Notes: generated by a model from the sequence alone, not told the origin. A stretch of DNA of 64,000 bases from Clostridia bacterium (GCA_017407285.1 JAFQWW010000015.1:1881-65880); one strand, 5' to 3'; counted from the stretch's first letter, positions 54,906 to 61,702 are shown. Numbers and translations: made by a program.

Positions 54906-56201
54906 TTACATAGTGAAATAGGTTTTTACCGTTACGCTATTTTGCATTCCATTCTCATCTACTATATCGTACGCGCCTTCTATCTCGAATAAAAGCGCCT
55001 CGTCATATTCATACGGCATGGTAAATTCTATACTCAAATACTCGTCCATATTAACGATATTGATATCAGTTACCATTACCTCAGTACCGTCCGTTTTATA
55101 AACGCAGAACGGATACGGGGATAGTAGATTGAATTCTCCGTTTTCCAATTCTAATTGAATCTTAACGCTCTTATCCTCTACCGTTATAGCAAAATCAATC
55201 TTAGGTACGCCAAGTAGTGCAGACGAGGTAAATTCTACACCCTCTACGTTACTATATTCCGAGAATTCGATATAACCTATACTATCGTCAACGGTCAAAT
55301 ACGTATACGGGAAAGATATGTGTAACGCTATCATAGTATCGCTTACGTAATCAAGTTCTTCTACGACTGCATAATCTTCAAACGCGCCACTCAAAGTAAT
55401 ATCAGCCACGCTAATATCGGAATTAAAATGCAAATTGCTTGCCTCTACGTACACGGTATCAGTCAACGCAAAGGTATCTACCGTCGCGTTCAATACCGTT
55501 GCGCCACGATAAGCGGTAGTAATTGCAGTGCTAAGGTTTTTGTTATAGGTAGTAGCGCTACTTAAGATCTCAACGTAAGCGTCGCTTGCCACGCTTAACT
55601 CACCAGACAAAGTCAACACTGCGTTTTGAGAGAGTTCCACGCCTCCCTCGTCTTCGTAGTAATCAGTGGTTACGGAGGTAATAGTTAAATCCTCTGCTAC
55701 ACCGGACAATACGAAATCATTAACGCTCAACTCTTTATTGAAGCACGCGGAGTTCAAGGACAATTCCACGGTGTGAGTGGTGTCGTTTGTGTATAAAATG
55801 GAGGAGGTGTTTGCATACGCTTCCGCTATAAAAACTTTAACGTCTACGCTTTGTCCTTTAACGATACCCTCGCCCTTAACTTCACCAAAATCCCCACTGT
55901 TTAGCGCGCCTGATAGGCTAAACACAACGGAATAATCGTCCGATAAATACACGCCTTCTATAGTCATTCCTTCAAACGCACCGCCAAGGGTGTATTTGCT
56001 CAAGTCGTCAAAATTCTCTTCCAACTCGTATCCGTCCATCACGGCTATAGAAAAACTACCGTAGTTTCCGTAACCTGCGTTATAATAATCGCGACAATAC
56101 GCACATGCGGGATCTTCGACCTCTTCATTGGGATTACAAGCCGTCAACAAACTCAACGCCAATATAACTACCATTAAAAATATAAAATATCTTTTTTTCA
56201 T
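54906..56201 (-). CDS. Lipoprotein of unknown function with an internal repeated LSG-motif module
   Basis: The start MKKRYFIFLMVVILALSLLTAC gives a signal peptide and lipobox. The motif [VIL]x[LF][ST]LSG[AEV] recurs four times (FSLSGAL, FVLSGVA, LTLSGEL, ITLSGAF). Confidence 0.55.
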   Translation of the reverse strand: MKKRYFIFLMVVILALSLLTACNPNEEVEDPACAYCRDYYNAGYGNYGSFSIAVMDGYELEENFDDLSKYTLGGAFEGMTIEGVYLSDDYSVVFSLSGALNSGDFGEVKGEGIVKGQSVDVKVFIAEAYANTSSILYTNDTTHTVELSLNSACFNKELSVNDFVLSGVAEDLTITSVTTDYYEDEGGVELSQNAVLTLSGELSVASDAYVEILSSATTYNKNLSTAITTAYRGATVLNATVDTFALTDTVYVEASNLHFNSDISVADITLSGAFEDYAVVEELDYVSDTMIALHISFPYTYLTVDDSIGYIEFSEYSNVEGVEFTSSALLGVPKIDFAITVEDKSVKIQLELENGEFNLLSPYPFCVYKTDGTEVMVTDINIVNMDEYLSIEFTMPYEYDEALLFEIEGAYDIVDENGMQNSVTVKTYFTM

Positions 56202-56206
56202 ATTGA

Positions 56207-57763
56207 TCACCATACCTTCTTATACGTATCGTCAGCGAACTTTCTGTTCTTTCCACTTGGATTTACTAAACTATGTATAGCATCTACGACGGTATTACCG
56301 ATTTCGTCGTAAATCGTATCGTAATCACCAATCATGTATCCGTTAGAATCCACGAACGCCATATAATAATCATTAAGACATGAATTATATCTATCCGTAG
56401 TCGGTGAACCAAATACTTTATATCTCAATCTACTCCACTTTGATTCTTGAGAATTTCCGTTCATGTCTGCATATTGCACGAAGAAGTTCCAATATTCGTT
56501 GGTAATCTTCACTCCTTCGTGTGTCATTCTTTGTTTTTTGTACAAACCTTCGTTGCTCCAATTATCACAAACGAAGCCCGAGTCTTTTAGGTAATCGGAG
56601 ATTTTATATCCCGAACCTTTTCTAAAAAGGCTAGCGTAATTTTTATATTCAGAAACAATAGTGTTTACAAATCCTGCGTTGTTGAATCCATAAACGGTAC
56701 AATTACGAACGTTGCCTTGTCTACTGATCTTGCCGTAGCTTTCGAATATAAACAAGTCGTACACCCTACCAAGATAAAGTTTTTTAGACAACAATTTTCC
56801 ACTAGAATAATGCAATATAGATTGAGTATCGTTACGCGACTGTATCGTAGTCTCTAAAGCCTTTATTTCCGATTTGAGATAGTCAAGAGCCTTATCGGAC
56901 GCCGTTTTGATGATATTCCAACGGGTTTTCAAGATTTCTTTTTGTGGCTCGTTATTATCTGCCTCTGCTAAAGTGGTTTCGTACGCATTTTGGAAGGCGT
57001 AAAGAGTCAAACCTTCAAGCACGGTTGCCGATACGTATCCTAAAAATTCTTTTTTCGGTGCAAAAGAATGAGTATCGAAAGCCCAAAGATATCTATAAGT
57101 TACGTTATAATGTTCCATAAGAGTCGTGGTAGGAACGGAAACGTTGGGCGTAACTATTTTGTCAAGTAAGGTGTTGAGTTGTAAGTACAAATCTCCCGTG
57201 GACGTACTTGAACCAAACAAAATGTTTTTCAAGTTATTGTCGTAGAACTTTTTCTCTTCTTCCTTTGCTTGCGCTTCATTCAAACTATTGTCATGTTCTT
57301 TGGTCATAAGAGTGTTATATCCTGCGTATATAGGATAAACGGTTTTGGAGAACACGTCCAAGGTGTTATAAAACTCAAGTATAGTGTTTTGGGATATCTG
57401 TTTGGCTTGGTTTGCAAGAACGTCTTTCAAATCGTCGTGAATCTGCTCCAACTTTTTGTTGACAGCCTTCAATTCTTTGGTGTAACTATCCGTGTAGTCT
57501 ATACCTAAGGAATCAAAAACCTGAGCGCAGAGAAAATCTCCCACGGTCGGCAAATTACTTTTTACAATTTCCGCGCCCTTTTCTCCCACCAAATTAAGTA
57601 TTCCGTCTAAAAGCGAGGTCGCTTCTCCGTCCAATATCGCAGTCTGCTCTCCTTCAGTTGCTTTTGCATCGTCGAGGTTAGCACTAAAAAATACAACTTG
57701 ACAGGTCATGGTTAGGACGAGTAAGACGATAAACGCACGTCTTAAATTTTGTTTCCAAATCAT
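56207..57763 (-). CDS. Secreted protein of unknown function (helix-rich N-terminal half, Tyr/Asn/Trp-rich C-terminal half)
   Basis: 518 aa with an AAGGAG RBS and an N-terminal signal-like segment AFIVLLVLTMTCQVVFFSA. I recognise no catalytic motif. Confidence 0.5.
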   Translation of the reverse strand: MIWKQNLRRAFIVLLVLTMTCQVVFFSANLDDAKATEGEQTAILDGEATSLLDGILNLVGEKGAEIVKSNLPTVGDFLCAQVFDSLGIDYTDSYTKELKAVNKKLEQIHDDLKDVLANQAKQISQNTILEFYNTLDVFSKTVYPIYAGYNTLMTKEHDNSLNEAQAKEEEKKFYDNNLKNILFGSSTSTGDLYLQLNTLLDKIVTPNVSVPTTTLMEHYNVTYRYLWAFDTHSFAPKKEFLGYVSATVLEGLTLYAFQNAYETTLAEADNNEPQKEILKTRWNIIKTASDKALDYLKSEIKALETTIQSRNDTQSILHYSSGKLLSKKLYLGRVYDLFIFESYGKISRQGNVRNCTVYGFNNAGFVNTIVSEYKNYASLFRKGSGYKISDYLKDSGFVCDNWSNEGLYKKQRMTHEGVKITNEYWNFFVQYADMNGNSQESKWSRLRYKVFGSPTTDRYNSCLNDYYMAFVDSNGYMIGDYDTIYDEIGNTVVDAIHSLVNPSGKNRKFADDTYKKVW

Positions 57764-60741: not shown

Positions 60742-60841
60742 TTTATCTCCTCTTTTCAAATAATATGCTTGACACAAGTATACCACGATATTTATAATAA
60801 ATATACATAGTAAATTTTAATTTTTACATGGTTTAATTAAA

Positions 60842-61702
60842 ATGAATTGGAATAAATACTTTATATACAATGATAATTTTGCTCTAACGTGCGCAAACGA
60901 AACAAAGATTGCAATGCATTCTCATCCGTTCTTTGAGTTAGGTTATATCAAAGAAGGGACAATACTACATACCTTAAACAACGAGACCACGACTTTGACA
61001 GAGGGGCAATACTTTTTTGTTGATAACTTCAACCAACACAGTTATCAAGCAACAACAGATTCAGTCTTAGTTTTCAATTTTTTATTTAAGGCGTCAATAA
61101 TAGACAACAGTCTTTCTTTTTGTCGTGATATTAAAACCTTATTACGACATTATATGATAAAAATAGATTCAACAAAGTTAAAAGCTAATCCGTCTACGGC
61201 CGTTTATAGCGACGATGATGGAAAAATTTGGGAATTGCTACATAAAATGCTCCACGAATACGAAAGGCAAAATTTTGGTTACGCCGAAGTAATACGTAGT
61301 CTGTTTATCGAATTACTCGTGTATACTATGCGAAAAATTTCGTCAACCAAAAGTGACTCGCAAGAAAACCTTGTTGACTATACGATAGAAAAGATTCTTT
61401 TAGATTGTGCAAATCCGCCGACACTTTCCGAGCTTGGAAAAAAATTCAACTACTCTATTCCATATGTTTCCATAAAATTCAAGCAAGCAACCGGGGAAAA
61501 TTACCGAGATTACATATCAAAAACTCGTCTTAACGAAGCAAAGCGTTTACTTATTAATACTGACTCAAAGGTACACGAAATCGCCAAATCAGTTGGTTAT
61601 ACAGATATAAATTCCTTTTATATTGCTTTCAAAAAGGAAACGGGATTGTCGCCAAACCGTTTTAAGAAGAACTTCAAAAATAAAAAAACTCAACTTTCAT
61701 GA
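60842..61702 (+). CDS. AraC-family transcriptional regulator
   Basis: An N-terminal cupin-like sensor (HSHPFFELGYIKEGT) and a C-terminal double HTH (LSELGKKFNYSIPYVSIKFKQATGENYRDYISKTRLNEAKRLL...VGYTDINSFYIAFKKETGLSP). Confidence 0.9.
   Translation: MNWNKYFIYNDNFALTCANETKIAMHSHPFFELGYIKEGTILHTLNNETTTLTEGQYFFVDNFNQHSYQATTDSVLVFNFLFKASIIDNSLSFCRDIKTLLRHYMIKIDSTKLKANPSTAVYSDDDGKIWELLHKMLHEYERQNFGYAEVIRSLFIELLVYTMRKISSTKSDSQENLVDYTIEKILLDCANPPTLSELGKKFNYSIPYVSIKFKQATGENYRDYISKTRLNEAKRLLINTDSKVHEIAKSVGYTDINSFYIAFKKETGLSPNRFKKNFKNKKTQLS

Follow-up and report, generated by a model that had tools for sequence, protein, structure and literature searches.

A 64,000-nucleotide (nt) stretch of DNA from a Clostridia bacterium (GCA_017407285.1 JAFQWW010000015.1:1881-65880), hereafter the window, carries at its positions 54,906 to 61,702 two adjacent genes that we call A and B, a gene for a secreted metallophosphoesterase (MPE) and a divergent gene for an AraC/XylS-family regulator (AraC). 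A (56207-57763, minus strand) encodes an exported protein of 518 amino acids (aa), and B (54906-56201, minus strand) a predicted lipoprotein of 431 aa when read from the ATG at 56201, or of 435 aa as 54906-56213. We find that A and B are a rare, obligate two-gene unit, strictly faithful to each other in four or more Firmicutes lineages, and that the region consists of two independent modules, AraC-MPE and A-B.

Homologues of A fall into 29 clusters, all at 54% identity or less, and those of B into 28 clusters, and for none of these is there a Pfam domain or an informative name. The best match to A stands at 54% and the identical full-length protein was missed because the cluster that holds A at 90% identity is represented by a fragment of 50 aa. 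In NCBI both proteins are listed as 'hypothetical protein', A as MBQ2714187.1 from a Clostridia bacterium metagenome-assembled genome (MAG) and B as MBQ2714186.1. B lies downstream of A on the same strand, at a distance of -7 to +13 nt, in 16 of the 16 other loci with downstream room, and these B homologues are 37-48% identical to that of the window. The three loci retrieved through B all carry A as well. The pair is thus strictly co-conserved outside the window; a lack of such co-occurrence was one outcome that an earlier note on this DNA, made from its sequence alone, had named as counting against its proposal. Based on 13 loci, the pairwise identities of A and of B co-vary (r = 0.88), with mean divergences of 40% and 43%. 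Given this correlation and the similar mean divergence, we conclude that A and B were inherited together. The other A-B loci occupy about 12 different contexts, which belong to Lachnospiraceae, Ruminiclostridium, Erysipelotrichaceae and Candidatus Coproplasma. When all open reading frames (ORFs) of 18 loci were clustered, A and B were the only gene clusters common to all, and no third gene was conserved with them: a glycoside hydrolase family 3 (GH3) gene is found in L001-L004 only and an AraC gene in three contexts.

The unit is very rare. A profile search with A against 1.84 billion representative proteins returned 54 matches, and a scan of 185,579 species genomes yielded nine loci, in MAGs of Ruminiclostridium, Lachnospiraceae, Lachnospira, Erysipelotrichaceae and Candidatus Coproplasma. 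A scan of JGI metagenomes with the A alignment found one truncated locus, the metagenome scan with the distant-clade alignment found nothing, and the pair had zero occurrences in plasmid, phage and IMG/VR scans. A literature search returned nothing on the A-B pair.

The partnership extends to remote members of the family. Most of the distant A-like proteins (E = 1e-54 to 1e-17) have a lipobox of their own. In locus L025, the single informative contig of this distant group, a 461-aa lipoprotein that matches the B profile (E = 1.2e-51) is encoded 15 nt upstream of an A-like lipoprotein, with the gene order reversed, and the A protein of L008 likewise has its own lipobox. If B were a mere membrane tether of A, self-lipidated relatives of A should occur without B; this idea failed, as both L025 and L008 keep B. 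Because self-lipidated A proteins retain their partner, we conclude that the A-B partnership is ancient and independent of B as the only anchor of A.

Several of these loci have further genes beside the pair. In some lineages an extra small lipoprotein gene, belonging to no Pfam family, is found directly upstream of A (L013:3377-3868, L014:1917-2408, L017:7308-7835 and L008:361-1101); its product has 163-175 aa in Candidatus Coproplasma and 246 aa, with B-like 'LSG' repeat motifs, in the Erysipelotrichaceae locus. In L023 (508-3196) a distant A-like gene has McrBC with an nSTAND3 domain as its neighbours, and in L025 (98-1570 and 5480-6814) the distant pair is flanked by two Schlafen/AlbA_2-HATPase_c_4 genes.

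In the window the two genes form a translationally coupled operon. The TGA stop of A (56209-56207) and the ATG of B at 56201 are separated by a gap of 5 nt, and the alternative B start at 56213 overlaps A. A sigma-70-type TTGACA-18-TATAAT promoter precedes the operon (57804-57833, minus strand; 12/12 consensus match), with its -10 hexamer (57809-57804) ending 40 nt 5' of the ATG of A; it is a consensus match only, and in most other loci it is not conserved upstream of A. The operon ends at a bidirectional intrinsic terminator (54859-54890, both strands), which has a 14-bp stem with six GC pairs and T-runs on either strand, and folds at -28.5 kcal/mol (z = -7.8) on one strand and at -24.0 kcal/mol (z = -7.5) on the other. 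On the other side, an intrinsic terminator lies 3' of the MPE gene (57862-57905, minus strand), where a hairpin of -22.2 kcal/mol (z = -5.1; 0 of 200 shuffles fold as well) is followed by the U-tract UUUAUCUUU. An Rfam scan of the window gave zero matches. Each of the ORFs, the A-B promoter, the two terminators and the short gap between stop and start had been described in the earlier note and was found where it had been placed. Its description of A and B as exported, without a family, served by their own promoter and translationally coupled also stands, as does its view of this stretch as the accessory-looking part of the window.

The bidirectional terminator also ends a convergent gene on the plus strand, for a 312-aa lipoprotein without a family (53898-54836). 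Its orthologue in L020 is 34% identical, against about 75% nucleotide identity in the flanking backbone; it is a fast-evolving surface lipoprotein.

The earlier note had gone further and read the region as one AraC-linked locus encoding three secreted proteins, which might act jointly as a scavenging system of phosphoesterase, helical protein and lipoprotein. Neither proposal is supported by comparison with other genomes. The nearest relatives, L020 and L021 (MPE 83% identical) and L018 and L019 (67%), all keep the divergent AraC and MPE arrangement, and L020 and L021 share with the window a backbone of alpha-amylase, galE, hexapeptide acetyltransferase, AraC, MPE, a lipoprotein and uvrC. Based on tblastn, none of these four contigs encodes A or B. 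In a nucleotide alignment window positions 54026-57947 are unmatched in L020, and the A-B position is occupied in both L020 (8695-9507) and L021 (11822-12634) by a gene for a SASA-family (PF03629) esterase on the opposite strand. Since an esterase gene replaces A-B in the closest relative, we conclude that the site is a hotspot for swapping accessory exported proteins. Conversely, A-B pairs elsewhere occur without any MPE, and an AraC gene is nearby in 3 of about 12 contexts. As relatives keep AraC and MPE without A-B, we conclude that AraC-MPE is ancestral to the lineage, and A-B an indel cassette in a variable site, the interval between MPE and the backbone lipoprotein. The MPE terminator and the separate promoter both lie between the MPE gene and A, in agreement with independent transcription of the pair. 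Thus, a single AraC regulon of three secreted proteins was rejected, and any control by AraC reaches no further than the phosphoesterase and does not extend to the A-B pair. We also considered a mobile-element origin for A-B and discarded it: candidate flanking repeats or scars amount to short matches at chance level, and the pair has no plasmid, phage or IMG/VR relatives.

Base composition separates the two modules as well. The 50 long ORFs of the window have a GC content of 0.419 ± 0.021 and a GC content at third codon positions (GC3) of 0.421 ± 0.033. Against this baseline, MPE (GC 0.368, GC3 0.318; z = -2.4 and -3.1) and AraC (0.339 and 0.334; z = -3.8 and -2.6) are the only strong outliers among the 50 genes. 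A is mildly low in GC and ordinary in GC3 (0.385 and 0.412; z = -1.6 and -0.3), and B is ordinary in both (0.414 and 0.445; z = -0.3 and +0.7). The A+T-richness of 57.9-61.7 kb, which had been judged by eye, therefore holds on computation, and the deviation from the window belongs to MPE and AraC rather than to the pair. Because GC3 of A and B is within the normal range, the pair is not compositionally unusual, and the idea that low GC betrays it as foreign DNA inserted recently was rejected.

Searches of Pfam, NCBIfam, PADLOC, PHROGs and PDB sequences with A and B, both with the single sequences and with profiles of the families, gave no match, so that the earlier statement that they have no recognisable family is borne out in these libraries. 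A Pfam scan of the family members gave scattered sub-threshold helical-bundle noise, e.g., DUF2096_N in 9 of 29 members at E = 0.004 or weaker. As PADLOC and PHROGs hold no match, we also dropped an identification of A-B as defence-system or phage proteins.

Protein A consists of a signal peptide (residues 1-28), a long helical bundle (91-313) and a C-terminal alpha/beta domain (315-518). Its AlphaFold2 model has a predicted local distance difference test (pLDDT) score of 80.3, and one helix of the bundle is 67 residues long. The most conserved segment of the family spans about residues 45-96 (conservation 0.73, compared with about 0.6 elsewhere), although AlphaFold2 fails to place this segment by itself (pLDDT < 50) and models residues 23-90 at low confidence. 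Compared with PDB and BFVD folds, the model has no significant match; the best non-significant ones are ClyA pore protomers at E of about 0.1. The few polar invariants are D53, D89, H318, Q411, K237 and K516, along with some Tyr and Trp residues, and the invariant positions form no recognisable catalytic motif. Beyond the signal peptide there is no transmembrane-like segment: the maximum Kyte-Doolittle hydropathy over 19 residues is 1.06, against about 1.6 expected. A ClyA-type toxin identity was rejected for A, given an hhalign probability of 1.6% for its profile against E. coli K-12 HlyE and the lack of a hydrophobic segment; none of the 29 members has an HlyE or Bacillus_HBL match in Pfam. 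Neither the sequence or profile similarity nor the hydrophobic beta-tongue/head segment that would place A in the ClyA family was found.

The C-terminus of A ends in an invariant GKV[W/R], which in the window is GKVW (515-518). A C-terminal tryptophan recurs in many members of the A superfamily, including distant ones, within endings such as GKVW, CDPSW, DCW, DTW, YMW and RKW; it was seen in window A and in P0066, P0068, P0069, P0075, P0081, P0087, P0089, P0091 and P0095. This tail could serve in docking or in recognition.

Protein B begins with MKKRYFIFLMVVILALSLLTAC and has the lipobox LLTAC, in which the cysteine is Cys22 of the 431-aa form and is conserved in at least 90% of the family. 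This agrees with the bacterial lipoprotein pattern [LVI][ASTVI][GAS]C, and lipidation is predicted. The AlphaFold2 model (pLDDT 89.6) is all-beta, with about four immunoglobulin (Ig)-like sandwiches after Cys22, and an 'LxGAF/LSG' motif recurs about every 100 residues. Based on Foldseek, B has 210 PDB matches at E <= 1e-3, led by FdeC (1.3e-9), titin Ig tandems, SbsB, SbsC, Sap and InvD; these represent generic tandem-Ig similarity (probability 1.0, TM-scores of 0.15-0.25). By its predicted fold B belongs with the tandem Ig-like surface proteins. In Pfam, no A or B family member has an SLH, CWB2, LPXTG or LysM anchoring module. Membership of an S-layer or cell-wall family, which the earlier note had named as an outcome that would count against its proposal, was accordingly found for neither protein in Pfam.

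We tentatively propose that A and B form a membrane-tethered heteromeric complex at the cell surface, in which a non-enzymatic ligand-binding head is carried on an Ig-like stalk, and give this reading a probability of roughly 0.4. Both proteins would be exported by Sec, in a fixed proportion set by translational coupling. B would be lipidated at Cys22 and its four or so Ig-like domains would serve as a membrane-anchored stalk or scaffold. After cleavage of its signal peptide, A would be held at the cell surface by binding B, with residues 45-96 as the likeliest contact. The helical bundle and the C-terminal alpha/beta domain would then make up the head, which may be an adhesin, a receptor or a capture device. 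We regard a non-enzymatic binding role for A as the better one because A has few polar invariants, no recognisable catalytic motif and no transmembrane-like segment.

Several points weigh against this proposal. The physical complex, the stalk-and-head geometry and a binding rather than a catalytic role are what we infer from the data above. The low pLDDT of residues 45-96 may merely reflect the shallow alignment of 29 sequences. Since the fold of A has no significant match, the binding head is an argument by exclusion. The self-lipidated A relatives of L025 and L008 are still paired with B, so the simple prediction of a tether failed. Finally, no ligand is indicated, with glycoside hydrolases nearby in only about 4 of 12 contexts.

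The main alternative, akin to the toxin/partner option raised in the earlier note, is that A and B are a toxin/immunity pair, in which A is a secreted toxin, e.g., a membrane-active helical bacteriocin, and B is a surface-anchored immunity lipoprotein that captures A before the toxin can get to the membrane of the producer. We consider this unlikely. The layout is suggestive, with a secreted protein tightly coupled to a membrane-anchored partner, and the cassette is rare, patchy and accessory, being present or absent between close relatives. Immunity lipoproteins are established, e.g., in LanI-type lantibiotic immunity, and by analogy B might be one. Two further points in its favour are that the best fold matches of A, albeit non-significant (E of about 0.1), are ClyA pore protomers, and that some distant relatives lie in conflict-type neighbourhoods (McrBC with nSTAND3; Schlafen/AlbA_2). 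On the other side, the four-domain B is large and its rate of evolution equals that of A, and the 3 loci retrieved through B include no orphan B gene. The hhalign probability of A against E. coli ClyA is 1.6%, a Pfam toxin domain is present in 0 of 29 members, and a hydrophobic head or transmembrane segment is absent. Many relatives of A are themselves lipoproteins, and hence not diffusible. Conservation is even along A, with no hypervariable toxic tip. In the 18 clustered loci the pair has no conserved companion gene for export, lysis or processing, and PADLOC holds no match. The features of polymorphic toxin/immunity systems, namely a toxin domain, a variable tip and orphan immunity genes, were thus not found in A-B.

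A second alternative, close to the nutrient-scavenging option of the earlier note, is that the pair binds a polymer at the cell surface and captures nutrients or glycans together with neighbouring hydrolases, MPE in the window and glycoside hydrolases elsewhere. Genes for GH3, GH31, apiosidase-like, SASA, GDSL and alpha-amylase proteins lie within 8 kb of the pair in L001-L004, L006 and L007, yet gut Clostridia are rich in glycoside hydrolases and this proximity may be chance; in about two thirds of the contexts a carbohydrate-active enzyme beside the pair is lacking. AraC-type genes are nearby in three contexts. Across the 18 loci the pair is accompanied by no conserved hydrolase, transporter or regulator. 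In the window A-B adjoins a secreted phosphoesterase with carbohydrate-binding-module-like domains, from which it is nevertheless separable both in evolution and in transcription. Ig-like lipoproteins are common as accessory components of glycan-utilisation loci, a precedent that B may follow, but Pfam scans of the families found a carbohydrate-binding-module signature in neither A nor B. The pair and its neighbours do not have the make-up of a Gram-positive polysaccharide-utilisation-type locus, and we judge this explanation improbable.

A more far-reaching idea, which we hold to be quite unlikely, is that A-B represents a two-component system on the surface of gut Firmicutes that has not been described before: A, with a new fold, would act on other cells and B would restrain or deliver it. 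If true, A would be, e.g., a membrane-active antibacterial or a host-directed effector, and the pair would define a new Gram-positive class of toxin/immunity or contact-dependent systems unrelated to known bacteriocins, to LXG/type VII secretion system (T7SS) toxins and to ClyA-type toxins.

A role in cell-envelope housekeeping or defence, either as a coiled-coil regulator of wall hydrolases like PcsB/EnvC or in phage-receptor masking or surface exclusion, is very unlikely: long coiled-coil secreted proteins with membrane partners regulate wall hydrolases in other bacteria and offer an analogy, A-B has an accessory distribution that varies between strains, and the surroundings of some distant relatives are defence-island-like, but neither protein has a LytM, CHAP or NlpC/P60 hydrolase domain, the family (54 representatives, 9 of 185,579 species genomes) is too rare for a core envelope function, and there is no PADLOC or PHROGs match and no phage, plasmid or IMG/VR occurrence.

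The other module of the region is better related to known families. The AraC gene (60842-61702, plus strand) encodes 286 aa with a C-terminal HTH_18 domain (67.6 bits, cut-off 33.6, E = 1.2e-18) and a cupin sensor (AraC_binding, 38.5 bits, cut-off 21.1, E = 1.2e-9; Cupin_2, 34.8 bits). It is thus an AraC/XylS regulator, as had been claimed for it; against the NCBIfam RhaS model it scores 97 bits, below the equivalog cut-off of 288. Its sigma-70-type TTGACA-18-TATAAT promoter (60769-60798, plus strand; 12/12 match) lies in the divergent intergenic region. The MPE gene (57967-60741, minus strand) encodes 924 aa from the ATG at 60741, or 939 aa in the GTG-extended form 57967-60786. Because the AraC promoter overlaps the extended reading, the ATG at 60741 is likely the true start.

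MPE matches Metallophos (PF00149) at 39.2 bits (cut-off 21.5, E = 1.3e-9), and D208, GD257, GNHD290-293, H388 and GHEH456-459 (GHxH) are invariant across 11 homologues, among which Y260 (GDxxY) is at least 90% conserved. Together the PF00149 score and the metal-ligand motifs make the 924-aa protein a calcineurin-like metallophosphoesterase. Its architecture comprises a signal peptide, a Flg_new-like repeat, the catalytic core and two tandem beta-sandwich domains at the C-terminus, the last two showing weak colinear self-similarity (E = 0.004). Of the domains originally read from the sequence, the phosphoesterase core and the two beta-rich C-terminal domains are supported; the Listeria-Bacteroides repeat (Flg_new) falls short of the threshold here (E = 0.0028), and homologues carry the domain in precomputed Pfam annotation. 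MPE has about 20 homologue clusters, and a literature search returned nothing on its architecture. Among solved structures its best matches are purple acid phosphatases, which are non-significant (E = 0.08-0.4). AraC-MPE forms a divergent regulator-enzyme unit. Given its conserved AraC partner, MPE is probably a phosphoester hydrolase that is inducible and acts outside the cell, and its C-terminal domains are carbohydrate-binding-like.

In relatives, the interval between AraC and MPE contains a conserved ORF of 50-54 aa, with the consensus MKIY.KP...NE..AT.PWG.FA.NL..LGG.ITSY.YGSG (L020:5709-5861, L018:3751-3915), whose product could be a leader peptide or else a small peptide that is secreted. 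The window is without this ORF (the corresponding site is 60755-60768), and its intergenic region is shorter by about 170 nt.

Gut Clostridia encode many exported proteins of unknown function, probably for attachment, nutrient capture or competition. A-B is a clean, minimal two-gene example, with no sequence relatives detected in curated libraries. The confident model of A matches no solved fold in the libraries searched. These features make the cassette well suited to structural work and to screens for surface interactions. Its biological impact is modest for now, since the family is very rare and points to no phenotype.

Both modules resemble known systems in part. The motifs of MPE (D, GDxxY, GNHD, H and GHxH) follow the purple-acid-phosphatase pattern, but the protein is far larger than these enzymes, multidomain and secreted, with a Flg_new repeat and two tandem beta-sandwich domains. 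AraC resembles RhaS/RhaR-type regulators in combining a cupin sensor with a double helix-turn-helix (HTH_18) and in being divergent from its presumed target; it differs in scoring far below the equivalog cut-offs and in having a phosphoesterase, not a sugar-catabolic operon, as its conserved partner.

As for the A-B pair, Ig-like surface assemblies with a lipoprotein tether are a type of system already familiar. Like ClyA/HlyE, Nhe, Hbl and YaxAB, A is exported and built as an elongated bundle of very long helices, and the ClyA family is partly multi-component. Unlike these toxins, A has an extra alpha/beta domain of 200 residues and no hydrophobic beta-tongue/head, and its partner is an Ig-like lipoprotein rather than a second helical subunit. 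B, in turn, shares with FdeC/invasin/intimin and with SbsB/SbsC/Sap a predicted string of Ig-like beta-sandwiches (E = 1e-9 to 1e-6) and a surface location. It differs from FdeC and the S-layer proteins in lacking Big_x, SLH and CWB2 sequence membership, in its predicted anchoring by N-terminal lipidation instead of an outer-membrane beta-barrel, LPXTG or SLH, and in always having a dedicated helical partner.

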